Virus record (IMG/VR): IMGVR_UViG_2565956714_000001
Span: 1-24,851 of that record
Strand: one strand, 5' to 3'
DNA: 24,851 bases
Source of the DNA: a virus
Lineage: Duplodnaviria; Heunggongvirae; Uroviricota; Caudoviricetes
The notes under the pieces were generated by a model. That model was not told where the DNA came from. It searched no databases and was given only the letters and a program-made list of their open reading frames with translations. The position numbers and the translations under genes are program-made. Below, piece after piece: positions 1 through 13,159 of this stretch (positions within the stretch are counted from its first letter, which is position 1; the number at the start of each line of letters is the position of its first letter).

Positions 1-1
1 T

Positions 2-118
2 CAGATGAAAGAATTAATCGGTAACGAAGGAGATATTCATGTCACTTGCAACCACAGTGAAGGAGAGCAAGTTACAGAGACGCATGTACACGCAGAAAGC
101 TCTCTGGTATCGCCATAA
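2..118 (+). CDS. partial ORF open from the window edge (3' end of an upstream early-left gene or a short ORF); function unknown
   Basis: Frame 2 is open from the first base to TAA at 116-118. It sits directly upstream of erf, where P22-type phages carry abc genes (positional analogy only). No RBS is visible inside the window. Confidence 0.3.
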   Translation, partial: QMKELIGNEGDIHVTCNHSEGEQVTETHVHAESSLVSP

Positions 119-219
119 TGGTGACCGCGAAGGAATGCGGGTATGCCTTAATTTGTCCCGAGTCGAAGTATTAAATCAGCGTTATTTCCTTGGGGAATGT
201 CCATTCTGAGAACAAACAT

Positions 220-825
220 ATGAGCAAAGAATTTTACGCAAGGCTGGCAGCTATTCAGGAGAATCTGAACGCGCCAAAGAATCAATACAACTCATTCGGC
301 AAATATAAATACAGAAGCTGCGAAGACATTCTTGAGGGTGTTAAGCCGTTACTGAATGGCCTGTTTTTATCAATCAGCGATGAAGTTGTGTTGATTGGTG
401 ATCGGTATTACGTGAAAGCCACGGCAACTATTACTGATGGCGAAAACAGTCATACAGCAACCGCTCTTGCACGAGAGGAAGAAAGCAAGAAAGGAATGGA
501 TTCTGCACAAGTTACGGGAGCCACAAGCTCTTATGCACGCAAGTATTGCCTCAATGGTTTGTTCGGCATTGATGATGCGAAAGATGCAGATACAGACGAG
601 CATAAACATCAGCAGAACGCAGCAGCAAAGCAATCAAAACCATCACCTACACCTGAACAGGTTCTAAAAGCATTCACTGACGCAGCAATGCAGAAAAACA
701 CCGTGGAAGAGCTTAAACAGGCGTTCGCCAAAGCGTGGAAGATGCTCGAAGGCACACCGGAGCAGCACAAAGCGCAGGACATTTACAACATCAGACGAGA
801 CGAATTAGAAGGAGCGGCTGCTTAA
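220..825 (+). CDS. erf: Erf-family single-strand annealing (essential recombination function) protein
   Basis: The translation from MSKEFYARLAAIQENLNAPKNQYNSFGKYKYRSCEDILEGVKPLL matches P22 Erf as I recall it, including the SSYARKYCLNGLFGIDD segment. I chose the ATG at 220 rather than the ORF-track start at 190 because the remembered Erf N-terminus is MSKEFYARL. Confidence 0.92.
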   Translation: MSKEFYARLAAIQENLNAPKNQYNSFGKYKYRSCEDILEGVKPLLNGLFLSISDEVVLIGDRYYVKATATITDGENSHTATALAREEESKKGMDSAQVTGATSSYARKYCLNGLFGIDDAKDADTDEHKHQQNAAAKQSKPSPTPEQVLKAFTDAAMQKNTVEELKQAFAKAWKMLEGTPEQHKAQDIYNIRRDELEGAAA

Positions 826-1208
826 TGGCACATTCGATTACTGTAAGACTAAACAAGCCCGCAAGAGAGTTTCAGGCTGGGGAAAATATCGGATTCAACA
901 TCCGTGCTGGCGTTCAGTATTACGATCGCCAGACAAAAAAGAAAGAATGGACAAACTACAGCGCCGTTGTATTTGCCAAGCCGGGAGCGCAAGCGGATTA
1001 CTATCGTAGCGTTCTGGTTGAAGGAGGCATTGTAGAAATTACCGGAGAAAACATCAGGGTTGATGTTTATCAGGGGCAAAATGGTCAATCAATCACTCTT
1101 GAATTACTGAATGCAAAGATTGGATTTGCAACCTCAGGAAACAGCCAACAGCAGCAAAGTAGCAATCATCAAAATCATCCTGAATACGACGATTCAATTC
1201 CCTTCTAA
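825..1208 (+). CDS. ssb: phage single-stranded DNA-binding protein (SSB-like, OB-fold) with acidic C-terminal tip
   Basis: ATG at 825-827 overlaps the erf stop (TAATG). The protein ends ...PEYDDSIPF, like the DDDIPF tail of E. coli SSB, after a Gln/Ser-rich linker. The N-terminal ~100 aa are OB-fold-like (RAGVQYYDRQTKKKEWTNYSAVVFAK). The 90-nt upstream extension in the ORF track overlaps erf and is rejected. Confidence 0.8.
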   Translation: MAHSITVRLNKPAREFQAGENIGFNIRAGVQYYDRQTKKKEWTNYSAVVFAKPGAQADYYRSVLVEGGIVEITGENIRVDVYQGQNGQSITLELLNAKIGFATSGNSQQQQSSNHQNHPEYDDSIPF

Positions 1209-1231
1209 AGTAGCAACATAAGGATTCCATT

Positions 1232-1528
1232 ATGCCAGCGCCTCTGTATGGTGCGGATGACCCGCGCCGCTGTTCCGGCAATTCCGTATCGGAGGTGCTG
1301 GATAAATTCAGAAAAAACTACGACCTGATAATGTCTCTACCGCAGGAAACGAAAGAGGAAAAGGAATTTCGCCACTGTATATGGCTTGCAGAGAAAGAAG
1401 AACGCGAGCGAATTTACCAGACATCAATCCGACCATTCCGCAAAGCCACATATACCCACTTCCCTGAATATATCGACCCGCGCCTGCGTAATTACCGCTC
1501 ACGCTATGGCGCTATCAGTAATGACTGA
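1232..1528 (+). CDS. hypothetical early-left protein (98 aa)
   Basis: ORF with an AAGGA RBS about 8 nt upstream (taaggattccattATG). It occupies the position that kil-like genes hold downstream of erf in P22; no motif is recognised. Confidence 0.6.
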
Positions 1529-1548
1529 GGAATTTACCATGAGAGGAC

Positions 1549-1706
1549 TTGCATACAATCCCGGCATTCTTCCGGCAGAAATGATTATTCGCCAACGCGT
1601 AAAGCCAATGCCATCGAGAGAGGAATTGCTTAAGAGAAAGAGTTTCGGTTCTGTTAATGACAACAAATATCTGAATGCGATGTTGCGCAAAGGAGGCAAC
1701 CGGTGA
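1549..1706 (+). CDS. hypothetical small protein (52 aa)
   Basis: GAGGAA RBS 7 nt upstream of the ATG at 1549 (ctgaggaatttaccATG). It sits at the position of c3 in P22-type early-left operons (positional only). The longer ORF-track version from 1386 overlaps the previous gene and lacks an RBS. Confidence 0.5.
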
Positions 1707-1786
1707 CTGGACATGCAGCGATCCTCGACATGTGCTGTGGCAGTCGCATGTTCTGGTTAGATAAGAATGACGAACGGGCGAGATAA
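1703..1786 (+). pseudogene. 27-codon GTG-initiated ORF with a SAM-methyltransferase motif-I-like peptide (ILDMCCGS); possible remnant of a methyltransferase gene
   Basis: Translation [27 protein letters not shown]. The hhDxxxGxG-like pattern resembles methyltransferase motif I, but the frame ends after 27 codons. Very tentative. Confidence 0.15.
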
Positions 1787-1836
1787 GCGATCGGTTAAGT
1801 GCTATAGTAATGCGCTTTTGTATTTATGGAGTGAAT

Positions 1837-2535
1837 ATGAAAAATATCCTACTGGCATCATTGTTAGTGGCATCGCCGGGTGCATTTGCAGCCAGCTTTG
1901 ACTGCCAAAAGGCTTCGACAGCAATCGAACATAAAATCTGCGATAACGAACGTCTGTCAAAATTAGACGAACAGCTTAGCTCTGCCTATTCTAGTGCCCT
2001 CAAAGAAAACCCAGAGAACGCAGACACCATAAAAATGGTTCAACGTCAGTGGGTAAATATGCGTGGAAAACTCACTGATAATAAGGCTCTGGAGCTGGCT
2101 TATCTTATCCAAATTAATGGCCTCAAAGGTTTGGGGAGTTCAGTCAGCGTAACAGCGGCCAATGAGATACCCACGTCGACGCAGAAACATTCTGAAGAGC
2201 AGGAAGAAACAAGTAAGGCAGAAGTTAAGTCGGTCAAGAACGGCAATAAGCTAACCTTAGAGTCATTCCGAGCTAAATATGTAGAAGTAGATGGTGAGTA
2301 TTACAGCACGACATCCATTCCTAGAGGCAGTTCGTTCTTGTTCACTTGCGCCAGTCGTATTGCTGATGACCAAGTGAATGTTTGGAAGAAACATGCAGCC
2401 AAAGAGGGCAAAATCGACCTATTCTTTGAGGTTGAGAATCACTTACACACTGCTATGTTGAACGCCAATTTCCAGAAGTTGAATTCAGACCCTGCCAAAA
2501 GAGGTATTTGTAATCTGATTAACGCAGTGCCGTAA
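1837..2535 (+). CDS. secreted/periplasmic DUF1311-like (lysozyme-inhibitor LprI-like N-terminal domain) protein; phage moron
   Basis: N-terminal signal peptide MKNILLASLLVASPGAFA, then FDCQKASTAIEHKICDNERLSKLDEQLSSAYSSAL, which matches the C..A...E..IC....L..LD..L...Y pattern of DUF1311 as I recall it. GGAG RBS before the ATG at 1837; own terminator downstream. Confidence 0.7.
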   Translation: MKNILLASLLVASPGAFAASFDCQKASTAIEHKICDNERLSKLDEQLSSAYSSALKENPENADTIKMVQRQWVNMRGKLTDNKALELAYLIQINGLKGLGSSVSVTAANEIPTSTQKHSEEQEETSKAEVKSVKNGNKLTLESFRAKYVEVDGEYYSTTSIPRGSSFLFTCASRIADDQVNVWKKHAAKEGKIDLFFEVENHLHTAMLNANFQKLNSDPAKRGICNLINAVP

Positions 2536-2543
2536 GTAAATTT

Positions 2544-2575
2544 AGGGCCACAGTTGTGGCCTTAAATATTTTTTC
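2544..2575 (+). terminator. rho-independent terminator after the DUF1311 gene
   Basis: GGCCAC-agtt-GTGGCC hairpin (2546-2561) followed by a T-rich run (ttaaatattttttc). Confidence 0.6.
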
Positions 2576-2741
2576 AGCCTTTTCTTATTTGTAATAAGCA
2601 GTACTTAGTAGTGCTTATAAAACAGAATAAAAAACATATGACTTTGGCGATTACCCAGTAAAGATATTCGAAATAAATGTAAATATCGGCAATGAATAAC
2701 AATCCTCGCACTCGCGGGGATTTCTTTTATATGGGGATAAT

Positions 2742-3542
2742 ATGACCATCCACTTTCACGGCAGCCCAATATGGGGGGATGAGCATGCCCCTACAGATAT
2801 GCTGATTAAAGCCCTTTACCGTGATGGTGGGGCTTTTGTTTCATTTGCCAGACCAGAGCAGATGAAAAAGATTGCCATGTTCCCTTGTGATATACGCCTT
2901 GATAACGGTGCTTTTAGCGACTGGATGAAAGCATTAAAGAAAGGCACTCCGGTAGACTGGAGTAAGAGACGAGCAAAATTCTACGACTTTGTTGGGAAGT
3001 GGTTCAGCAGAATTGAATGGTTTCTTATACCTGACGTTATCGAAGGGACAGAGGCAGAAAACGACGAGCAGATTGAGTTGGTTCCTGATTGGCTAAAATC
3101 AAAAGCGGTTCCGGTCTGGCATACCGACGAATCAATTGAACGTCTTTTACGCCTTTCTAGCAAATTTGAATGGGTGGCGATTGGATACTGCGGACCACAC
3201 AGGCACATACGCTCTAAATGGTGGGAACAGAGAATGGATGAAGTTTTCACTGAGCTTTATATCAATCGTAATTTGAAAGTGAAAATTCATGGTCTTCGAA
3301 TGCTCGACGTGAGAGTTCTTGGTATGTATCCGTTCGCCAGTGCGGATTCTACTAATGTTGCTGTTAACGTACCGAAGACAGAGAAGCGATTTCCTGAGAT
3401 TACCGACAAACTGGCACGCACAGCTGTACTTCGCGCTGCTATTGAAAAGGTGCACCCGCCATCGATATCAGCATGGGTAGACAGAAAGATGAGAGAGCCG
3501 GCGCAAGCCGGTTTTTTATTTGAATTCACCGACGCCGCTTAA
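2742..3542 (+). CDS. hypothetical 266-aa protein; possible TGT-fold (tRNA-guanine transglycosylase / DpdA-like) enzyme
   Basis: Clean ORF bounded by terminators on both sides. Motifs RLDNGAFS, LIPDVIEG, AIGYCGP and FASADSTNV occur in the order and approximate spacing of TGT-family motifs LTDSGGYQ, AFDEC, LMGVGKP and DMFDCV (from memory). No Cys/His zinc site is present. The functional assignment is speculative; the CDS itself is well supported. Confidence 0.6.
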   Translation: MTIHFHGSPIWGDEHAPTDMLIKALYRDGGAFVSFARPEQMKKIAMFPCDIRLDNGAFSDWMKALKKGTPVDWSKRRAKFYDFVGKWFSRIEWFLIPDVIEGTEAENDEQIELVPDWLKSKAVPVWHTDESIERLLRLSSKFEWVAIGYCGPHRHIRSKWWEQRMDEVFTELYINRNLKVKIHGLRMLDVRVLGMYPFASADSTNVAVNVPKTEKRFPEITDKLARTAVLRAAIEKVHPPSISAWVDRKMREPAQAGFLFEFTDAA

Positions 3543-3561
3543 TGCGGATTTCTTTTATCTG

Positions 3562-3588
3562 AACTCGCTACGGCGAGTTTTGTTTTAT
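3562..3588 (+). terminator. rho-independent terminator after the 266-aa gene
   Basis: AACTCGC-tacg-GCGAGTT hairpin followed by TTTGTTTTAT. Confidence 0.6.
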
Positions 3589-3599
3589 GGAGATGATAA

Positions 3600-3767
3600 A
3601 TGCACTTCCGAGTAACAGGTGAATGGAATGGAGAACCATTCAACAGAGTTATCGAAGCAGAGAACATCAACGACTGCTATGACCACTGGATGCTGTGGGC
3701 GCAGATGGCACATGCAGACGTAACCAATATTCGAATTGAAGAACTGAAAGAACACCAAGCCGCCTGA
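3600..3767 (+). CDS. hypothetical small protein (55 aa)
   Basis: ATG at 3600 preceded by GGAG (3590-3593). The stop codon lies within a GC hairpin followed by a T6 run. Translation MHFRVTGEWNGEPFNRVIEAENINDCYDHWMLWAQMAHADVTNIRIEELKEHQAA. Compact, with its own RBS and terminator. Confidence 0.6.
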   Translation: MHFRVTGEWNGEPFNRVIEAENINDCYDHWMLWAQMAHADVTNIRIEELKEHQAA

Positions 3768-3781
3768 TGGCGGTTTTTTAT
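3758..3781 (+). terminator. rho-independent terminator
   Basis: AGCCGCC-tgat-GGCGGT stem followed by TTTTTTA. Confidence 0.6.
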
Positions 3782-3824
3782 TGCCTGATTTGCAGGTTCG
3801 ATTCCCTATTCGGAGATAGCACTC

Positions 3825-4025
3825 ATGCAACACGAACTACAACCTGATTCACTGGTTGATTTGAAATTCATCATGGCTGATACTGGCTTCGGTAAAACCT
3901 TCATCTACGACCGGATTAAGTCCGGCGACCTGCCAAAAGCCAAAGTTATCCACGGGCGAGCAAGATGGTTATATCGTGACCATTGTGAATTCAAAAATAA
4001 GCTCTTAAGCCGCGCCAATGGGTAA
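3825..4025 (+). CDS. torI: TorI-like excisionase / recombination directionality factor (AlpA/Xis-family winged helix)
   Basis: The 66-aa translation MQHELQPDSLVDLKFIMADTGFGKTFIYDRIKSGDLPKAKVIHGRARWLYRDHCEFKNKLLSRANG matches my recollection of E. coli KplE1 TorI. GGAG RBS 9 nt upstream. Confidence 0.85.
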   Translation: MQHELQPDSLVDLKFIMADTGFGKTFIYDRIKSGDLPKAKVIHGRARWLYRDHCEFKNKLLSRANG

Positions 4026-4086
4026 AATAGCGGGTAAAATATTTCTTACATCTAAAAAACATCATTCCAATCAATCCCCTGCCGAT

Positions 4087-4131
4087 GGTGAGGCTTTATA
4101 GAAAAATACCTCACCATTATTTTGTAATTTT
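4087..4131 (+). terminator. possible terminator downstream of torI
   Basis: GGTGAGG ... CCTCACC stem with a large 15-nt AT loop, followed by attattttgtaatttt. Confidence 0.35.
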
Positions 4132-4140
4132 CGCATAGAT

Positions 4141-4179
4141 AAAAGAAAATAAATCACGAATTGTTTAAATTTGTGATTT
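4141..4179 (-). terminator. probable rho-independent terminator of the tailspike gene
   Basis: On the minus strand: AAATCACAAATT-taaac-AATTCGTGATTT (one mismatch) followed by ATTTTCTTTT. Confidence 0.45.
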
Positions 4180-4226
4180 ATTACACGCAATAATTATCAT
4201 GCTTTATTAAACCCTCCAGCTAATCC

Positions 4227-6293
4227 TTATATACTCCTTGAAATTTCAAACCAAATACCACTCAGTCTTTTTAGTGTTATAATTGTGTTGCCTGATATTG
4301 ACGCTATATCTTTTTCTCCTCTTAACCTTATAAGCTTGTTATTATGAATTAACTTTGATCCTATAGACATTCTTACTTGTATTATTTGCCCATCAATTCC
4401 ATTAGAAAAGTAACTTACAACTTTATTGTCAAGGTATATGCTTGGCCCGACAAATGCACTAGATGTGCCTCCCGGAGCAAAATATTCAATAGATGGGTCC
4501 TCAAGAGCGGTAACGTTATCTATTTTATAGAAAGGAGTCCTTCCCCTAATGCTATAGTACTGTGAGTAATTAGCATTTTTTGCTGAAATATCTATGGCAG
4601 AAATTCCTGTCATTAAACTATCATCTTCAACTAAGTATAATATGTGTCTGAAATTACCAGCCTGATGGATTGTTTCTCCATATATATTTATATTACCAAG
4701 AACAACACCATTTAGCTGGCAAAGATAAATAGCACATGCTGAATCACCGTTAGGTGTATATACGTTTCCAGATATGGAATACTCAGTCGTGCTTCCATTA
4801 ATCATCTTGGTAACACTCCTTCTGGAACTGTATATTGCATTATCAGGTAATTTAAGCGTCTGTGATGATTCTATTCCTATACAAGCTACAGATGCTGTTA
4901 TTGTATTATTTTTTAATGAAACATATCGCGAGTTAAAGCAATGTACTCCGTATCTCCAGTCACCTAGTATCATGTTGCCTATTATGTCTATACTGTATGC
5001 ACCTTGTGCAAACTGGATAGCTGCATCATCAGATATGTAACTAGAAGTAGAGGCTGACTGTATATAGTTGTTTGATATCTGTATATATCTAGATTCTCCA
5101 AAAATAATTGCTGATGATTCTGCATTGATTAGCCTATTTCCCTCTATTTTTACACGCTCGCAACCAGTTCCAAGATTTATATTACGATGCGAACCTCCAA
5201 TTAGTATATTCCCTGTAAATTCAGCATTAAATAACCCGAAAGCTTGCACGTTGTGAGTTCCGTTGATAACGGTGTTGTTTGACACAGTTATGTACTGAAT
5301 GGTTTTGTGTTGCGAATTCCATTTTACACTTCCAGTTTCAGTGTCTATGTTGTTTTGTGCTACTAAATATATACCAGCAATACCAACTGTTCCTGCACCA
5401 CTATCAGGATCTATGGGCATCTCAATTGTATTTCCTTCTATGGTATCGTATAAGTTTAGTGATGTGATATCTGTTGTTCCAATACGTATACCATATCGTT
5501 CAGTTCCATCAACACCGAAACCATATACTCTGTTTCTTAGTATTTTGCACCTAGTTGTTGCGCTAAGAAGAATTCCTCCTCTGGCAACACCATTTGCATT
5601 AATGGAACAATCACTAATTTCAAGGTCTGTGTGACCGGAAGTACCTTGCGAAAACAAGCAGACACCACCCTGTGCTGTGACAATCAGGCTAAGATCACTT
5701 ATTTTTTTTATGCCAACAGGTATTTCTACCTGAGAAACGAGATATGTGCTTCCTTTTTTACCTCTTACCCAACGAATTTTCCCAGAAGAACAGTATTTCA
5801 TAGCAGACACTATAGATTCTGTATCATCATTAACCCCATCACCAACAGCGCCGAATTGTTCCGGTGTAACATACAATGATTGATCATACAAAGTTCCAAT
5901 TGGCTGGACGCCAACCATCCCAGAACCAAGTGAAGATGAAAGCTCATACTTAAATTGGTCTGGGTCGTACTTCAACACATTTGGGAAATAAAATTGCTGT
6001 GCACCATACGCATCATAAACAGCCATAGAATGGCCTTGCACTGTAACGAACTTGGCGATCTGTCCGTTATACACAGGATAACCGGCAGAGTTAATAACAA
6101 TTGGTTGTTCTACCTGAACATGTTTACCATCTTCTCGTTCCAGATATACCGGAATCTGGTTTTCAGGATTTACCGGGTCCGTGTCAATTTTACCGATATA
6201 AATTTTTCCATTGGCTACGGCTTTAAAAGAACGCGCCATAGTGAAGAGTTGCGAAGGCATGCTCACTACAACATTGGCTGTAATGTCTGTCAT
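4227..6293 (-). CDS. tailspike protein: P22 gp9-type N-terminal head-binding domain fused to a divergent right-handed beta-helix receptor-binding domain
   Basis: The N-terminus [50 protein letters not shown]...[14 protein letters not shown] matches the P22 gp9 head-binding domain from memory. The remaining ~570 aa are beta-helix-like (NNT/GN/IxG coil repeats) with no P22 similarity, and the DNA there is visibly AT-rich. GGAG RBS upstream on the minus strand. Confidence 0.9.
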
Positions 6294-6425
6294 TTAATTT
6301 GCTCCAGATACAAGGAATCACCGCAGCGTGGCTACGGTTGGTGTTTGTTGCATACCGAAATGGTACGATTGTTGATTTGTACAGTAGGTTTTACGATGCC
6401 ATTCCACCCATTTGGTGAGGCATTG

Positions 6426-6683
6426 ATGATGTACAGCAAATACGATGAGGCGCAGTTCCACTTGAGGCTTACGCACGAGTTGCACGCTAAGATTAAGCAA
6501 CGTGCAAAAATGAATAACAGGTCTATCAATTCCGAAATTGTGGCTACGATGGAAGAATCACTCTCCAAACCATCACCTGTAAGCGGGTATCGTGATGAAG
6601 AAGAGAGGCTGGCCTCATTAATCTCGGAACGAGTAAAAGAAGTTGTGGCTGATATCCTTAGAAAAGAAAAAACCCGCAATTAA
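6426..6683 (+). CDS. mnt: Mnt-like ribbon-helix-helix repressor
   Basis: MMYSKYDEAQFHLRLTHELHAKIKQRAKMNNRSINSEIVATMEESLSKPSPVSGYRDEEERLA parallels P22 Mnt as recalled (RHH N-terminus and SKPSPVTGYRNDAERLA C-terminal region). GGTGAGG RBS precedes the ATG. The ORF-track frame from 5955 upstream is antisense to the tailspike and is not counted. Confidence 0.85.
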   Translation: MMYSKYDEAQFHLRLTHELHAKIKQRAKMNNRSINSEIVATMEESLSKPSPVSGYRDEEERLASLISERVKEVVADILRKEKTRN

Positions 6684-6697
6684 GCGGGTTTAGTTGG
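6669..6697. terminator. bidirectional terminator shared by convergent mnt and the arc-ant operon
   Basis: AAACCCGC-aattaa-GCGGGTTT hairpin. The minus-strand reading is followed by TTTTTTC (strong); the plus-strand reading by a weaker TTTAGTTGGTT. Confidence 0.65.
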
Positions 6698-6919
6698 TTA
6701 GTTATCAAAAAGTCCGTACGTTTCTTCTTCTTCAGGTGTAAGGGGAAGAATCTCTACTCTATCTATAGATACCTTTTCAATGTACCCATGAGGTCTACTT
6801 AAAATTAAAGCTCTCTCATGCCACAGAACTCCAAGAATGTGATACCTTCCAGCATCTCCTTTTACCCTGGCTCTTCCTTTGATTCTTGGCGGCATAATGC
6901 CATATCTTTTCTTTGCCAT
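6698..6919 (-). CDS. hypothetical 73-aa protein, last gene of the arc-ant operon
   Basis: Start overlaps the upstream stop by 1 nt (translational coupling). Translation MAKKRYGIMPPRIKGRARVKGDAGRYHILGVLWHERALILSRPHGYIEKVSIDRVEILPLTPEEEETYGLFDN. No family recognised. Confidence 0.55.
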   Translation of the reverse strand: MAKKRYGIMPPRIKGRARVKGDAGRYHILGVLWHERALILSRPHGYIEKVSIDRVEILPLTPEEEETYGLFDN

Positions 6920-7644
6920 TATGCAACATTGCTCCCATGAATCAGGTGTTGTAGTGCTTTAACACCCTCCGCATTGTAGCGGAATGCTTCCACCTGTTTG
7001 CTTGAATGCGCAGATTTATCCAAGAAGAACTTCCCGTACTGCTCAGTTTTGAGGTTGTTTGCGTTAGCAATGCGACCAATCTTGTTTGCCGTTACTCCAA
7101 GCTGCTCTGCAACCTCCCCTGCTGAGTAGTAATGCTCTTCTATTGCTGGAAGAGGTATTGCATTAAAACCAACTATCGGGTTGATTATGCTTGCTGCCGC
7201 AGTCTGCTTTGCTTCCGGCGCAAGATTTGGCATCAAATCTAACAGATTGGTAACAGCTTCAACCGTCATTTTCAATGTTCGTGCCTGGCGATACTCAACA
7301 AGTCCACTCGACGATTTACCGCTTTTAATGTGCGCTTCTTGCATACTTTCAAGTTTGTCTACAAGTGTTCGGCGAACTGCTTTAGATTCGCGAGCAGCAA
7401 CACGAAGCGCCTGCTTGATAGTCATGGAGATAACATCAATGTCAGCCCCGTTTTTCCGACCTACACTTTTTGTGTAGGTCTCGCCCTCCAATTCATCCTC
7501 AATTTTCTCGATGAATTTGTTGTTACGTACTGATGGCTCTCCACATAACTTGCGAGCTTCATTAACCATCATCAGAAGACTTTGGCTGTCAATGGTTTTA
7601 TCCGTGACAACGGATCCGATGTTTGCTACATTCTTCAAAGTCAT
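6919..7644 (-). CDS. antirepressor-like protein (Rha/KilA-C/ANT-type C-terminal region)
   Basis: Start at MTLKNVANIG with an AAGGAA RBS. The C-terminal HYYSAGEVAEQLGVTANKIGRIANANNLK resembles the DNA-binding segment of ANT/KilA-C antirepressor domains. Co-oriented with the Bro-N gene upstream. Confidence 0.6.
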   Translation of the reverse strand: MTLKNVANIGSVVTDKTIDSQSLLMMVNEARKLCGEPSVRNNKFIEKIEDELEGETYTKSVGRKNGADIDVISMTIKQALRVAARESKAVRRTLVDKLESMQEAHIKSGKSSSGLVEYRQARTLKMTVEAVTNLLDLMPNLAPEAKQTAAASIINPIVGFNAIPLPAIEEHYYSAGEVAEQLGVTANKIGRIANANNLKTEQYGKFFLDKSAHSSKQVEAFRYNAEGVKALQHLIHGSNVA

Positions 7645-7732
7645 TAGGCATTCCTTATGTGGTAGTAAGGGTGTGACATAGGCCGCCAGCAGCACACTGG
7701 CGGTTTTCTTTTTGCGCCGTCCGGCGCACCAA

Positions 7733-8359
7733 TCAATGAATCCATTCCTCGCCGCGCAGTTTTGTCAGCATTGGCTGAGCGTTCTTTACGACAAAATTGT
7801 TGGTATCAAGATTCTTCATTTCACGAAGAAGTGATTTCTTGGTTTCTTCTGACATATAGCGAGTCTCATATGCAATATCGTAAATTCTTCCTGAAAGCTC
7901 AGAACCAATTTGCTTCATTCCTGGGTAGATGTGTTTGCACATTTGTTGACTCTTCTCCATCCACAATTGTAAGTAGCAGAGATTAACCAGTTCTTCGTCA
8001 GTAAACTGTTTTGCAATCGGTGAGCATTCTGCCTGCCGATCCAAAATATCCAGCACCCAGCGGCGGAACTCTTTGGCTACCGGAGTGCGAGCAAACATCG
8101 CGATTAGGTGGGCACCGCGTAGTGAGAAAACTCGCACTTTTTTGCGATAATTTCCTGAGGTACTCACTTCGAGTACCTGAGTCATTCCGGCGCTAAACTC
8201 ATCGCTATACTTGTTATAAATCATTGTTACTGCACGGCTATTTGCATATTTAAGTGCAGATGCAATATTAGATGATGTAAACCAAACACCATGCATATCA
8301 CGGGTGGGCACCAACTCAACTCCGTGGAAGTTGTAATCTGATTTTGCTACAATATTCAT
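7733..8359 (-). CDS. ant: antirepressor, Bro-N domain protein
   Basis: Start at MNIVAKSDY (AAGGAAAC RBS); the ORF-track start at 8464 has no RBS. FHGVELVPTRDMHGVWFTSSNIASALKYANSRAV is Bro-N-like. It lies downstream of the arc-like gene as in P22 immI. Confidence 0.75.
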   Translation of the reverse strand: MNIVAKSDYNFHGVELVPTRDMHGVWFTSSNIASALKYANSRAVTMIYNKYSDEFSAGMTQVLEVSTSGNYRKKVRVFSLRGAHLIAMFARTPVAKEFRRWVLDILDRQAECSPIAKQFTDEELVNLCYLQLWMEKSQQMCKHIYPGMKQIGSELSGRIYDIAYETRYMSEETKKSLLREMKNLDTNNFVVKNAQPMLTKLRGEEWIH

Positions 8360-8437
8360 GTTAGTTTCCTTGCATACGGTTACTGACATAGAGGCCCGGT
8401 TTGTGTTCGCGCACTGCCGGGCTTCACTATTTTTATT
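8360..8437 (+). ncRNA. candidate sar-like antisense RNA covering the ant RBS
   Basis: On the plus strand, an extended -10 element TGcTACAAT (8345-8353) sits just inside the ant 5' end. A directional hairpin GCCCGG...CCGGGC (8394-8422) followed by TTCACTATTTTTATT lies in the arc-ant spacer. Positional analogy to P22 sar. Confidence 0.3.
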
Positions 8438-8606
8438 GGATGACAACATCGCCCTTTGCCTCAAGTTTCATCAATAACTCCATTCGATAAGCTATCTCTG
8501 CCTGAATTGACCTATGGCATCTTTTTGCTGATTCGCGGATATGTGAATCAACCTTTTCTGTAAAACGAACCTGACGCGGCTTGATGGAAGATATCTTTTC
8601 AGTCAT
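8433..8606 (-). CDS. arc: Arc-like ribbon-helix-helix repressor (57 aa)
   Basis: Not in the ORF track (under 60 aa). Translated by hand: MTEKISSIKPRQVRFTEKVDSHIRESAKRCHRSIQAEIAYRMELLMKLEAKGDVVIQ. GGAG RBS 7 nt upstream. It is the first gene of the antirepressor operon, as in P22. Confidence 0.7.
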   Translation of the reverse strand: MTEKISSIKPRQVRFTEKVDSHIRESAKRCHRSIQAEIAYRMELLMKLEAKGDVVIQ

Positions 8607-8655
8607 TATGCACTCCTGTTTTTGAAAAACTCATAATCTCACTTTTTGTAGTTTG

Positions 8656-8684
8656 ATTATTCACTCACACTCAGTATGAGTCAA
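8656..8684 (-). promoter_or_regulatory. Pant-like sigma70 promoter with an embedded palindrome (candidate Arc operator)
   Basis: Minus strand reads TTGACT-17 nt-AATAAT upstream of arc. The inverted repeat ACTCA-gta-TGAGT (8669-8681) overlaps the -35 and spacer. Confidence 0.4.
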
Positions 8685-8705
8685 TGAATTTTTTATGGTG
8701 AACTA

Positions 8706-9347
8706 ATGAATTTTGACGATCAATTCCCATCAAGAGTATCTCTGGCAAGACAGTCCAGGGGTATGACGCAGGCGCAGTTGTCAAAATTAGCTGGTGTTGT
8801 TCAACGTCAAATAGCTGCATACGAGGGTGGTGAGGCTAAACCACGGCTTCGTGTATTGCAGGCATTAGCCAACGCATTAGGCACTACGGCTGAGTGGTTA
8901 GCTCTGGGTGAAGGTCAGGGGCCTGGAACAAAAAACGTCATGCCTGACGTTCTGGTAAAGCAAATACCAATCCTCAAACTAGATGAAGTTATGCATTACC
9001 TAAACACAGGTGAACATTCATCGTCTAGATTTCATCCGGCAATATACAATGTTGGTGACTCTGCATTTGCATTGACTATTGAAGGTGAAGCTATGACTAC
9101 AAGTTCAGGTATTAGCTTTCCCAGAGGATCAGTTGTCACGTTCAGCCCTCTAGTAAAAGCTAAAAGCAAAGATTATGTAATAGCATCATTGGATAAAGAG
9201 CAAATATTGAGCTTCAAGCAGGTTTACATTGGTGAAATAGAGACAAACTTAGTATCCCTAAACCCAATGTATCCTAATATTCTTGTTAGAAATGAAGATG
9301 TTAGTATTTTGGCAACCGCAGTTTACCTTGAAATCCCGTTGCTTTGA
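8706..9347 (+). CDS. lambda-CI-like regulator: XRE-type HTH plus S24 (LexA-like) C-terminal domain with catalytic Ser replaced by Ala
   Basis: N-terminal HTH MTQAQLSKLAGVVQRQIAAYEGGEAKPRLRVLQALANALGTTAEWLALGE. The C-terminal VGDSAFALTIEGEAMTTSSGISFPRGSVVTF aligns to lambda CI [33 protein letters not shown], with GCT (Ala, 9090-9092) where CI has the nucleophile Ser. The Lys of the dyad is retained (LSFKQVY vs FTFKKLI). No Ala-Gly cleavage motif is seen in the linker. Confidence 0.8.
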   Translation: MNFDDQFPSRVSLARQSRGMTQAQLSKLAGVVQRQIAAYEGGEAKPRLRVLQALANALGTTAEWLALGEGQGPGTKNVMPDVLVKQIPILKLDEVMHYLNTGEHSSSRFHPAIYNVGDSAFALTIEGEAMTTSSGISFPRGSVVTFSPLVKAKSKDYVIASLDKEQILSFKQVYIGEIETNLVSLNPMYPNILVRNEDVSILATAVYLEIPLL

Positions 9348-9411
9348 TATCCTTTAGGAAGCGACACATTATCATCCGGTGTTCTGCTCAAAACTAAGGA
9401 GTGGCTACTCA

Positions 9412-10050
9412 ATGAAAAAAATAGATATATATAGCGATACATCAGCCTATGTCATAGGCTCATTGGGTTTTTTAATTTTTTTTGTTTGGCAGTACCAGTC
9501 ACTATCTCCAGGATGGAGATTTTTGGGGATGTCTTTGATATCACTTGGTGCAGGAATAGCAACGCAGGTGTTGATGTATCTCTTTAATGGATGGATCTCA
9601 AAAAGAGTTGAGAAAAAAAGAGCTACTTCAATATGTAGAAGCCTAGCTATTCCAGAAGACTCTACAGATCAGGATGATATTGCAAAATGTTGGCGGTATA
9701 TGATTGCAAGATACTCAAATGAGTTACTGGCAAACAGACTGTCCGACTTAATCGGGATCGTAGTTACCTCTGTTGGAACAATCATCAGTATAGGGATATC
9801 AATTTGGTATGTCGGGATGATTGTCTATTTTGTTTGGAATAGAGACTTCAATGAACCTTCCCTTCTTTTTATACCTTTATTTTTCAGGGTATTAGCATTC
9901 ATATGTGAGTTATTGCTCTCTTTTTTCTGCAATGTTTTGTTCAACAGATACCCAGGTGAAGCAAGAAAGTTTAATAAAAACTATGATGAGTTAAGGAGAA
10001 CAGATCCTTTTCTATCAAGCAAAGAGTTCCGCGATTCCATTCGCAATTAA
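9412..10050 (+). CDS. inner-membrane protein with four predicted TM helices; possible SieA-like superinfection exclusion protein
   Basis: AGGAG RBS before the ATG at 9412. Four hydrophobic segments are visible in the translation. The DNA is AT-rich. It occupies the slot where P22 has sieA; the function is positional inference only. Confidence 0.55.
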   Translation: MKKIDIYSDTSAYVIGSLGFLIFFVWQYQSLSPGWRFLGMSLISLGAGIATQVLMYLFNGWISKRVEKKRATSICRSLAIPEDSTDQDDIAKCWRYMIARYSNELLANRLSDLIGIVVTSVGTIISIGISIWYVGMIVYFVWNRDFNEPSLLFIPLFFRVLAFICELLLSFFCNVLFNRYPGEARKFNKNYDELRRTDPFLSSKEFRDSIRN

Positions 10051-10097
10051 CAACATCCATGACATCAACCCTTAGCGATCAGTTGCATCATTGGCAA

Positions 10098-10100
10098 GTA
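10098..10100. repeat. IS3 target-site duplication, left copy (GTA)
   Basis: GTA immediately outside the IS3 left inverted repeat; the same trinucleotide is at 11359-11361. Confidence 0.7.
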
Positions 10101-10165
10101 TGATCTTACCCAGCAATAGTGGACACGCGGCTAAGTGAGTAAACTCTCAGTCAGAGGTGACTCAC

Positions 10166-10465
10166 ATGACAAAAACAGTATCAACCAGTAAAAAACCCCG
10201 TAAACAGCATTCGCCTGAATTTCGCAGTGAAGCCCTGAAGCTTGCTGAACGCATCGGTGTTACTGCCGCAGCCCGTGAACTCAGCCTGTATGAATCACAG
10301 CTCTACAACTGGCGCAGTAAACAGCAAAATCAGCAGACGTCTTCTGAACGTGAACTGGAGATGTCTACCGAGATTGCACGTCTCAAACGCCAGCTGGCAG
10401 AACGGGATGAAGAGCTGGCTATCCTCCAAAAGGCCGCGACATACTTCGCGAAGCGCCTGAAATGA
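10166..10465 (+). CDS. insE: IS3 transposase OrfA (InsE, HTH)
   Basis: [54 protein letters not shown]... matches the recalled IS3 InsE. Confidence 0.92.
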
Positions 10466-11328
10466 AGTATGTCTTTATTGAAAAACATCAGGCTGAGTTC
10501 AGCATCAAAGCAATGTGCCGCGTGCTCCGGGTGGCCCGCAGCGGCTGGTATACGTGGTGTCAGCGGCGGACAAGGATAAGCACGCGTCAGCAGTTCCGCC
10601 AACACTGCGACAGCGTTGTCCTCGCGGCTTTTACCCGGTCAAAACAGCGTTACGGTGCCCCACGCCTGACGGATGAACTGCGTGCTCAGGGTTACCCCTT
10701 TAACGTAAAAACCGTGGCGGCAAGCCTGCGCCGTCAGGGACTGAGGGCAAAGGCCTCCCGGAAGTTCAGCCCGGTCAGCTACCGCGCACACGGCCTGCCT
10801 GTGTCAGAAAATCTGTTGGAGCAGGATTTTTACGCCAGTGGCCCGAACCAGAAGTGGGCAGGAGACATCACGTACTTACGTACAGATGAAGGCTGGCTGT
10901 ATCTGGCAGTGGTCATTGACCTGTGGTCACGTGCCGTTATTGGCTGGTCAATGTCGCCACGCATGACGGCGCAACTGGCCTGCGATGCCCTGCAGATGGC
11001 GCTGTGGCGGCGTAAGAGGCCCCGGAACGTTATCGTTCACACGGACCGTGGAGGCCAGTACTGTTCAGCAGATTATCAGGCGCAACTGAAGCGGCATAAT
11101 CTGCGTGGAAGTATGAGCGCAAAAGGTTGCTGCTACGATAATGCCTGCGTGGAAAGCTTCTTTCATTCGCTGAAAGTGGAATGTATCCATGGAGAACACT
11201 TTATCAGCCGGGAAATAATGCGGGCAACGGTGTTTAATTATATCGAATGTGATTACAATCGGTGGCGGCGGCACAGTTGGTGTGGCGGCCTCAGTCCGGA
11301 ACAATTTGAAAACAAGAACCTCGCTTAG
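10462..11328 (+). CDS. insF: IS3 transposase OrfB (InsF, DDE catalytic domain); expressed as an OrfAB fusion by -1 frameshift
   Basis: [36 protein letters not shown]... with DDE-type motifs ([17 protein letters not shown]). It overlaps insE in the -1 frame. Confidence 0.92.
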
Positions 11329-11341
11329 GCCTGTGTCCATA

Positions 11342-13159
11342 TTACGTGGGTAGGATCAGTATTGGTCTGATGGCATTTGCGGCGTTATTCAGCGCTCTTT
11401 CATAGGCTGGCGTTCCAGCTTTAGTGTTTGCCAGACGTAAGAGCGCATTCCTTGCTGCTTTGGACTCATACAAGCGCATCATTGCACCGAAACCAGCCTC
11501 AAGCCCCATTGATACGCCAAGAGTCGCAGTTGCGCCAATCGTCCTTATCCTGTTGGCTTGCGATTGCCCCGTCTGAGTTACTACATTTGCGGTGTCTGAC
11601 CTTGCTGTTTGCTGTAGAACTTCATTAAGAGCATCAAGTTCTTTCATGTGCTTTCCAGAAAAAATAGTGTTGTAAATTTCACCTCCTGACTGAGATTTCA
11701 GCTTATTAACTTCAGTGATGAACTTGGCTGGAGAGTCACCGGCCTTTTCCGCTATTTTGCTGACGTAAGCTGCACGCATAGCATCTTTCCCTTTATCATC
11801 CAGTGCGCTCCAGATTCGTTTCACGTCAGATGGTTTTCTGCTTAATACAACGGTATTTATAAGTTCAGGACTGGCTTCACTGCTTGCCTTGTTGAGCTTG
11901 TTGGCAATGTTTTTATTAAGCACCTTATTATAAACGTTTGCATAATCGGAATTTGCTTTAAGGTATTTTGCTGCGTCTGATGCACCGAGGTTTTTAGCAA
12001 CTGCGTTACGAAGGTCTTTTGACATTGCATTCTCTACCATATTGGTAGCTGCTTTTGCCTGGTTGGGGAAGACCATAGCATCTCCCTGAACATTAGATCT
12101 AAATGCTGTTCTGTGCTGACGCAAGAGATCAAACGTAACATCCAAATCAGTTGCAGGGTTTGCTAATTCTTCACGTAGGTTACGCAAGGATGTAAGCAGG
12201 CTTTGATTGGCTGAAGTCCCAAGCCGTTCCTGTCTTGCGATCGCTGTATTCAGAGCATTCATGGTATTTGTGGTATCAACTGCGGCATTACCCATTTTAT
12301 TGGTGACGTCATTGATAACAGCGCCAGCAGCATCCTTCCGCCCCCTTAACGTGGTGGTCAGAGATTTCACCACATCATCAGGGTTGTACTCACCAAAACG
12401 GTCAAAATAATTGCTTACCAGCTTACTACGCGTTGCATATTGCTCCGCTCGCTTTGAGCCTGTCCCGAGCAAAGCCCCCTCGGCATCCTGAGTAAGGCCG
12501 CGAGTGAAAGCATTTTTCGGCGGGATAACATCAGATGTCATTGGTGTCACGCCCATCGATTCTGATGTGGCAATTTTCTTCGCCACTTCTGGCGCAATAT
12601 CACCTTTTATAGCCGTTATTCCACGCCCTATTCCCTTTGCTGCTGCGGAAAGAACACCCTGAGCGGCAAGGTTAACTCCGGCATTTTTAGCTGCATTTTG
12701 TGCGAAATCGCCTTTCTGATTTGCGGCCTCTGCCAGTGATCCAATAGCCATGCTTCCTGCCGTTCCAACTCCTGGAACTAAATACCCGCCAATTGTTTCT
12801 CCAGCTTGCGCATAAGGGTCTGTTGGTCGATCTACTGGACGATAGACATCGTCCAAAACCTTGGGGCCACCAAGCCCCTGGCTGATTGCATTAATCAGAC
12901 TTGCGCCACCCTGCAATACGTCAAATGGTATATTTACCAGACCACGACCAGCCTGCTCTGCAATTTGCCCTGCACTTTGACCACCAGTGAGCAAGTCAGT
13001 AGCTTTTTCTACCAGAGATTGTTCTTCTGGCTGCGATTGGTTTTGAGTGGATTGATCACCAGAAGACAGCATCTGAGCAATGCGACGTGCTCCCTCAGTA
13101 TCACCAGCAGCATCAGCATTCCTTAACGCCGTCATCAATTGTTCACGACTATAGGCCAT
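11342..13159 (-). CDS. ejection (pilot/internal) protein, P22 gp16-like; C-terminus altered by the IS3 insertion
   Basis: 605-aa ORF at the gene 16 position, co-oriented and coupled to the gp20-like gene. Its last codons and stop (11342-11358) lie inside the IS3 right end. Confidence 0.8.
11359..11361. repeat. IS3 target-site duplication, right copy (GTA)
   Basis: GTA immediately after the IS3 right end, identical to 10098-10100. Confidence 0.7.

Follow-up and report, generated by a model that had tools for sequence, protein, structure and literature searches.

The window analyzed here, a single stretch of DNA of 24,851 nucleotides, is a P22-like phage genome of the Sf6/HK620/HF4s type. On its plus strand, an open reading frame (ORF) at 2742..3542, with an ATG start and a TAA stop, encodes a protein of 266 amino acids (aa) that we assign to the "singleton" phage DpdA clade as a putative zinc-free, minimal DNA-guanine transglycosylase of the TGT fold. 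Upstream of this dpdA-like gene, on the same strand, are erf, a 127-aa ORF, abc2, and a gene for an LprI-family lipoprotein, and downstream are a small ORF resembling lambda orf35 and then xis/TorI; given these flanking genes, the dpdA-like gene lies in the leftward early operon. Megablast showed the flanks to be common to many lambdoid phages without the gene. A preliminary description, made from the nucleotide sequence alone, had placed the ORF exactly, and all four motifs that it named were found in the translation, i.e., RLDNGAFS (residues 52-59), LIPDVIEG (95-102), AIGYCGP (146-152), and FASADSTNV (198-206). It had also claimed that a Cys/His zinc site is absent, and the 266-aa protein indeed contains only two cysteines, C49 and C150, and therefore no CxCxxC...H zinc cluster; the zinc ligands of Escherichia coli TGT are C302, C304, C307, and H333.

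The boundaries of the gene are evident by comparison with phage HF4s, in whose empty site the upstream terminator leads to the downstream one via a single copy of GGATTTCTTTTAT. A repeat search of the window revealed two such copies, a left 16-nt direct repeat, GGATTTCTTTTATATG, at 2718..2733 (+), overlapping the T-tail of the upstream terminator, and a right copy, GGATTTCTTTTATCTG, at 3546..3561 (+), 4 nt past the stop codon. With one 16-nt copy in HF4s and two in the window, the gene can be delimited as a cassette of 828 bp that has a direct repeat at its borders. Base composition did not mark this cassette as foreign. The dpdA-like gene was present in 69 of 5426 complete E. coli genomes, and the copy in phage HK106 occupies the equivalent position, in the leftward early operon beside xis.

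The gene had been described as lying between two terminators, which agrees with the terminator-like hairpins detected at 2701..2722 (+) upstream and 3561..3580 (+) downstream; both belong to the phage backbone, and the former also occurs in phages without the dpdA-like gene. Further terminator-like hairpins were located by the hairpin scan at 2540-2567 and 3757-3776, with a total of 9 such sites in 1.5 kb compared to 1.4 ± 1.1 in shuffled sequences, while an Rfam scan of positions 1-12000 returned no RNA family. Another hairpin from the same scan, at 3492..3517 (+), which the preliminary description did not mention, lies inside the ORF, in its final ~17 codons; it is strong, consists of GAGCCGGCGCAAGCCGG followed by a T-run, and precedes the stop codon at 3540. 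The protein tail encoded across it (EPAQAGFLFEF...) is conserved in relatives of 76-87% identity and is predicted to be disordered. If this hairpin terminates transcription, only antitermination would yield transcripts that include the stop codon. No sigma-70-like promoter was found directly upstream of the dpdA-like gene. Consequently, the gene looks more like a cassette of the leftward early operon than like a moron complete in itself.

Several other features of the window were noted. The LprI-family (lysozyme inhibitor) gene just upstream of the dpdA-like gene, at 1810-2535 (+) and followed by the hairpin at 2540-2567, encodes a secreted or lipoprotein-like product, and of the 79 IMG/VR loci with homologues that made up our locus survey, 7 have an LprI gene next to the DpdA gene, an arrangement that also occurs in an E. 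coli prophage (L005). At about 2641-2700, a leftover 3' end of an ASCH-domain gene shows that replacement has taken place at this site. Between xis (3825-4025) and the tailspike gene (4227-6293, minus strand), homology to HK620-type xis/attP stops at 4084, and from 4085 onward the sequence is homologous to the tailspike 3' flank; this 4084/4085 junction was absent from phage and E. coli records. Missing from the window are the integrase and gtr genes, whose usual place is between attP and the tailspike gene; without an integrase, this genome may be unable to integrate. A repressor-like gene with HTH and S24-peptidase (LexA/CI-type) domains at 8706-9347 (+) is followed by a 223-aa ORF without a Pfam match at 9379-10050 (+); both oppose the strand of the surrounding antirepressor-like and structural genes, and together they may form an accessory or defense cassette. 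At 10157-11328 (+), a two-ORF IS3-family transposase (HTH_Tnp_1, then an rve integrase core) is inserted between an immunity-I-like region and the DNA-injection genes.

Searches with the 266-aa protein yielded 2227 homologues (E ≤ 1e-3), with 1707 cluster representatives among its relatives. The dN/dS ratio against orthologues was 0.04-0.15, i.e., 0.15 compared to HK106 and 0.04-0.07 compared to relatives of 83-87% identity. Together with the number of homologues, these values demonstrate that the ORF is a real conserved gene and not a chance reading frame, and that strong purifying selection maintains it. No close copy has a disrupted frame, and the protein is 100% identical in several IMG/VR prophage loci. 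Minus-strand ORFs within the gene were rejected as unsupported, and selection acts on the plus-strand frame. At codon 149 (3186-3188), the window copy encodes Tyr (AIGYCGP), compared to Cys in HK106 and most relatives (AIGCCGP); this residue is naturally variable across the family (C, L, S, M).

The protein matched PHROG 887, "queuine tRNA-ribosyltransferase," with an E value of 1.4e-101, and the same family was matched by DpdA of phage CAjan (E 8e-96), an enzyme that has been validated genetically in that its deletion abolishes dPreQ0 in phage DNA. When a 67-sequence profile of the family was compared to CAjan DpdA by hhalign, the two aligned over 161 columns with a probability of 98.7% (E 4.4e-16), in a register that pairs LDNGAFS with LDSGAFS, PVWH with PCFH, and ADST with CDSS and matches the glycine loops of the two. 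The HK106 orthologue, YP_007151699, is 98% identical to the 266-aa protein and has been listed as a "DpdA-only" phage protein (Hutinet et al. 2019, Supplementary Data 1), along with the proteins of phages 7-11, PEAT2, SE131, SEN1, SPN3UB, BTP1, and SfI, in all of which DpdA is the sole pathway gene; tblastn with the 266-aa protein recovered the same phages. RefSeq annotates the HK106 orthologue as a queuine tRNA-ribosyltransferase, and the PGAP label in the E. coli chromosomes listed by the search is "hypothetical protein."

Standard domain models did not detect this relationship. The 266-aa protein gave no match in a Pfam scan at E ≤ 10, PF01702 included, nor with NCBIfam (NF041059 included) or PADLOC (DpdA model included), and phmmer and profile HMM searches of PDB chain sequences produced only noise, with no TGT or DpdA match. 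Similarly, the family profile could not be aligned by hhalign to E. coli TGT taken as a single sequence (0.5% probability), none of 67 distant family members matched Pfam TGT, and one of the 67 relatives matched NF041059 at a non-significant E value of 0.11. As a control, the validated CAjan DpdA was found to be likewise devoid of a Pfam match and of a PDB sequence match; therefore, the PF01702 comparison that had been suggested for this protein does not discriminate, and these negative results carry little weight.

An AlphaFold2 model built from 33 homologues (pLDDT 89, pTM 0.86) shows alternating strands and helices, with residues 255-266 as its only disordered part. A Foldseek search of the PDB with this model was non-specific, returning generic TIM barrels first, Cap10 with the best TM-score, and DpdA at rank 46. 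Against viral predicted structures, 28 matches were obtained at E ≤ 1e-3, and those with a name are without exception phage "queuine tRNA-ribosyltransferase" proteins; below these matches, the scores fall sharply to unrelated barrels. The model forms a (beta/alpha)8 barrel most similar to TGT/DpdA structures, as would be predicted for a member of the TGT superfamily. With PHROG 887, the alignment to CAjan DpdA, the viral structure matches, and the HK106 listing all in agreement, the initial TGT/DpdA-family reading was borne out, and the 266-aa protein very probably belongs to the phage DpdA family. Since the family has been published and the HK106 orthologue was catalogued as DpdA in 2019, this finding is already known; a reading of motifs in sequence had recovered a DpdA that Pfam, NCBIfam, and PADLOC miss. 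What our analysis adds is small, namely the cassette boundaries, the linkage to a Vut transporter and its loss in the E. coli clade, gene fusions, and the estimate of selection.

Conservation of the putative active site was read from 33- and 67-sequence alignments. At identities as low as 23%, D54, F58, D98, H127, G148, and D202 are still invariant or almost invariant. In the model, these residues are placed at C-terminal strand ends, one strand after another, and their order is that of bacterial DpdA (bDpdA). In bDpdA, Asp95 is the general acid/base, Phe99 a stacking gate, and Asp256 the nucleophile, with Asp130 and His181 recognizing the base and Gly206/Gly207 forming the substituent loop; D95A and D256A mutants are dead, and the structural Zn site is conserved (PMC10164549). 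E. coli TGT follows the same motif order, with D89 (LTDSGGFQ), D143 (VMIFDEC), the GGL loop, and D264 (MFDCV).

The proposed general acid/base, Asp54 (codon 2901..2903, +), is invariant, closes strand 50-54, belongs to the motif D-N-G-A-F, which also contains Phe58, and aligns to the Asp of LDSGAFS in CAjan DpdA; we propose Asp54 and Phe58 as counterparts of bDpdA Asp95 and Phe99, and Asp54 as that of E. coli TGT Asp89. Asp98 (codon 3033..3035, +; motif IPDV), the candidate base-recognition residue, directly follows strand 91-95 and is invariant to 23% identity. Its suggested equivalence to bDpdA Asp130 and E. coli TGT Asp143 is the least certain of these assignments because CAjan DpdA has a Ser at the aligned position and an Asp three residues later. 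His127 (codon 3120..3122, +; motif PVWH), the likely counterpart of bDpdA His181, is invariant, ends strand 125-127, and aligns to the His of PCFH in CAjan DpdA. Gly148-Tyr149-Cys150-Gly151 (codons 3183..3194, +) would form the glycine loop after strand 144-148, corresponding to bDpdA Gly206/Gly207 and the TGT GGL loop; G148 and G151 are invariant in alignment A1, and G148 aligns to CAjan G153. Finally, Asp202 (codon 3345..3347, +; motif ADST), the proposed nucleophile, is invariant or nearly so, lies in strand 200-203, aligns to Asp206 (CDSS) of CAjan DpdA, and is the presumed counterpart of bDpdA Asp256 and E. coli TGT Asp264. Because the PADLOC DpdA model, over its positions 200-259, matches CAjan residues 147-209, G148 and D202, through CAjan G153 and D206, fall at about positions 206 and 256 of that model. 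Judged from these alignments, the equivalence of the Asp residues with the catalytic residues of TGT/DpdA appears well supported, although not proven.

Among known systems, the closest are the gammaproteobacterial singleton phage DpdA proteins (group 3 of Hutinet et al. 2019), i.e., HK106 YP_007151699, 7-11 YP_004782407, and those of PEAT2, SE131, BTP1, SPN3UB, and SfI, with 98% identity to HK106, 64% to PEAT2, and 57% to Salmonella phage 7-11. Like the window, these phages carry DpdA and no preQ0 or G+ synthesis genes. Essentially no feature distinguishes the 266-aa protein from that of HK106, whereas the backbones differ, the window being a P22-like (Sf6/HK620-type) podovirus and HK106 a lambda-like siphovirus; compared to PEAT2 and most relatives of 57-87% identity, the window gene lacks an adjacent Vut/YhhQ gene. 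DpdA1 of the Queuovirinae (Escherichia phage CAjan gp35; phage 9g) has PHROG 887 in common with it, and both CAjan DpdA and the 266-aa protein are short, lack the bacterial zinc-bearing insertion, and do not match PF01702. However, they share only about 16-24% identity, their second Asp is placed three residues differently, and the CAjan gene resides in a FolE-QueD-QueC-QueE-YhhQ cluster and converts ~32% of G to dPreQ0, whereas the window gene stands alone.

More distant enzymes were considered and set aside. Bacterial DpdA (Salmonella Montevideo, PDB 7UI4) has 413 aa compared to 266 aa, with Ins8 and the structural Zn site missing from the phage protein, and the window contains neither a DpdB ATPase partner nor dpdC-K genes; with no model match, no zinc-bearing insertion, and no DpdB partner, assignment to a bacterial Dpd-system DpdA was rejected. 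A DGQHR-domain (DndB/DpdB-like ParB-fold) gene was observed ~2 kb upstream of the homologue in a lambda-Red-type prophage of E. coli 2024CK-00188 (L005, 6183-7247), with L036 and L061 noted alongside. A regular DGQHR/ParB-like (DpdB-like) partner was nevertheless rejected, as such a gene occurs in 2 of 79 loci and is absent from the window, and at this frequency, it is probably an independent cassette. Canonical TGT was also rejected: the 266-aa protein has no detectable sequence-profile similarity to TGT/ArcTGT (PF01702), no CxCxxC...H zinc site, no N-terminal lid, and no C-terminal RNA-binding parts, and its presumed substrate is DNA rather than tRNA. Cap10 of type IV CBASS (PDB 9NTN, titled as Cap10 in complex with CdnD carrying an NDG modification) is 10% identical and sits in a defense operon, whereas no CBASS genes are present in the window.

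The preliminary description had noted that no 7-deazaguanine synthesis genes are nearby, and we found no Que or FolE homologue across the 24.9-kb window. Specifically, tblastn for Que, FolE, Vut/YhhQ, and Dam homologues in the window gave no match (all E ≥ 0.1), a Pfam scan of the neighboring ORFs revealed no preQ0-synthesis or transporter gene, and amidotransferase, FolE, QueD, QueE, and QueC were all absent from the window, which is less than the whole genome. Members of the Vut/YhhQ family are preQ0 transporters. In the locus survey, a Vut/YhhQ gene lies directly upstream of the homologue, abutting or overlapping its start, in 20 of 25 loci at 57-87% identity and in none of 30 loci at ≥97% identity; QueC, QueD, QueE, and FolE were found within 10 kb of the homologue in 0 of the 79 loci. 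The Vut-DpdA pair also occurs in PEAT2 and in three further loci (L009-L011). This E. coli clade has therefore lost the linked transporter. E. coli has its own preQ0 pathway, and a phage-borne transporter is therefore dispensable. Host supply is also feasible because, when DpdA2 enzymes are expressed by themselves in E. coli, preQ0 or preQ1 of host origin appears in the DNA, which does not happen in a queD mutant.

Fused forms of the gene were seen as well. A relative of 76% identity is a DpdA-Dam fusion with Vut upstream (L009-L011, 6001-7383), and more distant relatives include fusions to QueD (P0193) or to a D12 adenine methyltransferase; P0006 and P0125 are family members fused to DNA adenine methyltransferases. 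Additional fusion loci noted were L046 and L008 (2840-3847). Some of these fusions may be read-through gene calls.

We favor, with a probability of roughly 0.6, the interpretation that the gene encodes a singleton phage DpdA, expressed with the early left genes, that would exchange guanine in DNA for a host-supplied 7-deazaguanine. In this account, a trimmed, zinc-free TIM-barrel enzyme of the TGT superfamily would act on DNA. If it works as bacterial DpdA and TGT do, Asp202 would attack C1' of the target deoxyguanosine, with Asp54 as the general acid/base; guanine would leave, and a free 7-deazaguanine base would be joined in its place. This base would most likely be preQ0, or possibly preQ1; Asp98, His127, and the Gly148 loop would bind it, and Phe58 would stack against it. 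With no synthesis or uptake genes in the phage, the base would have to come from the host, supplied by the E. coli queuosine pathway or by host YhhQ-mediated salvage. As the gene has no promoter of its own and is flanked by terminators on both sides, the cassette, situated between the recombination genes and xis, would depend for its expression on the antiterminated early transcript and be silent except in lytic growth or after induction, at the time of phage DNA replication. Replacement of G is then expected to be sparse and probably motif-specific, and it would blunt restriction when the phage enters its next host; the preliminary description had likewise envisaged that a host-made preQ0-type base might be inserted to counter restriction.

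Some observations count against this interpretation. Phage 7-11, 57% identical and the only member of the clade in which modification has been measured, contains 50 dADG per 10^6 nt (0.02% of G) and no dPreQ0, and in Mycobacteriophage Orion, which is also DpdA-only, no modified base was found (Hutinet et al. 2019). The same authors ask whether singleton DpdAs, which form their own clusters, have diverged in function, and our search of the literature after Hutinet 2019 and Cui 2023 returned nothing on the function of singleton or prophage DpdA. The trace of dADG in 7-11 weighs against our reading, as do the Ser of CAjan DpdA opposite Asp98, the loss of the transporter, the ORF-internal hairpin, the lack of Pfam, NCBIfam, PADLOC, and PDB matches, and the failed profile alignment to E. 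coli TGT.

These observations led us to weigh other explanations. Although unlikely, it is conceivable that a genuine DpdA-family protein has shifted in function away from bulk anti-restriction modification of phage DNA and instead marks a few specific sites, acts on host DNA or tRNA to influence queuosine-dependent translation, or exchanges deazaguanine out of the DNA of competing modified phages. Such a shift would agree with the mere trace of dADG in 7-11 and the divergence flagged by Hutinet et al., with the absence from this clade of the Zn-bearing insertion (30% of bacterial DpdA), and with the fact that the carriers are temperate phages and prophages, while strong purifying selection indicates that some function is retained. 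However, all catalytic and base-binding residues are invariant, a DNA-modifying role that uses a salvaged base is indicated by the fusions to DNA methyltransferases and by the tight linkage to a preQ0-type transporter, a promoter that could drive expression in the lysogen was not found, and no data support an alternative substrate. A more specific version, which we regard as rather doubtful, is that the zinc-free stand-alone DpdA of temperate enterobacterial phages places a rare, sequence-specific deazaguanine mark or performs the reverse exchange on incoming deazaguanine-modified (Queuovirinae-type) DNA; either activity would explain why 7-11 shows only trace modification despite strong purifying selection, and reverse exchange, if true, would imply a role in phage-phage competition.

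It is improbable that the gene is a decaying, inactive remnant of a cassette that has lost its transporter partner and now drifts. Vut is absent from all 30 loci at ≥97% identity and present in sister clades, residue 149 of the window copy is Tyr and not the Cys of most relatives, and a hairpin lies within the ORF end, all of which would fit decay, but the frame is intact in every close copy, dN/dS is as low as described above against both HK106 and the 83-87% relatives, and prophages at several IMG/VR loci encode the identical protein; moreover, position 149 is naturally variable, and the E. coli preQ0 pathway makes a phage transporter dispensable. Least probable by far is a TIM-barrel enzyme functionally unrelated to TGT/DpdA whose motif likeness is coincidental, a reading that is already largely refuted. 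Altogether, the preferred reading of the gene is that of a stand-alone phage DpdA that would draw on the base pool of its host.

Among 7-deazaguanine-related phages, no group is larger or less well understood than the DpdA-only phages. The presence of a Vut-DpdA module in sister clades and of DpdA alone here yields a testable prediction about the source of the precursor, and the E. coli/HK106 clade offers a convenient system for asking whether DpdA-only phages modify DNA with host precursors, with a small cassette, tractable lambdoid and P22-like phages, and a host queuosine pathway that is well mapped.
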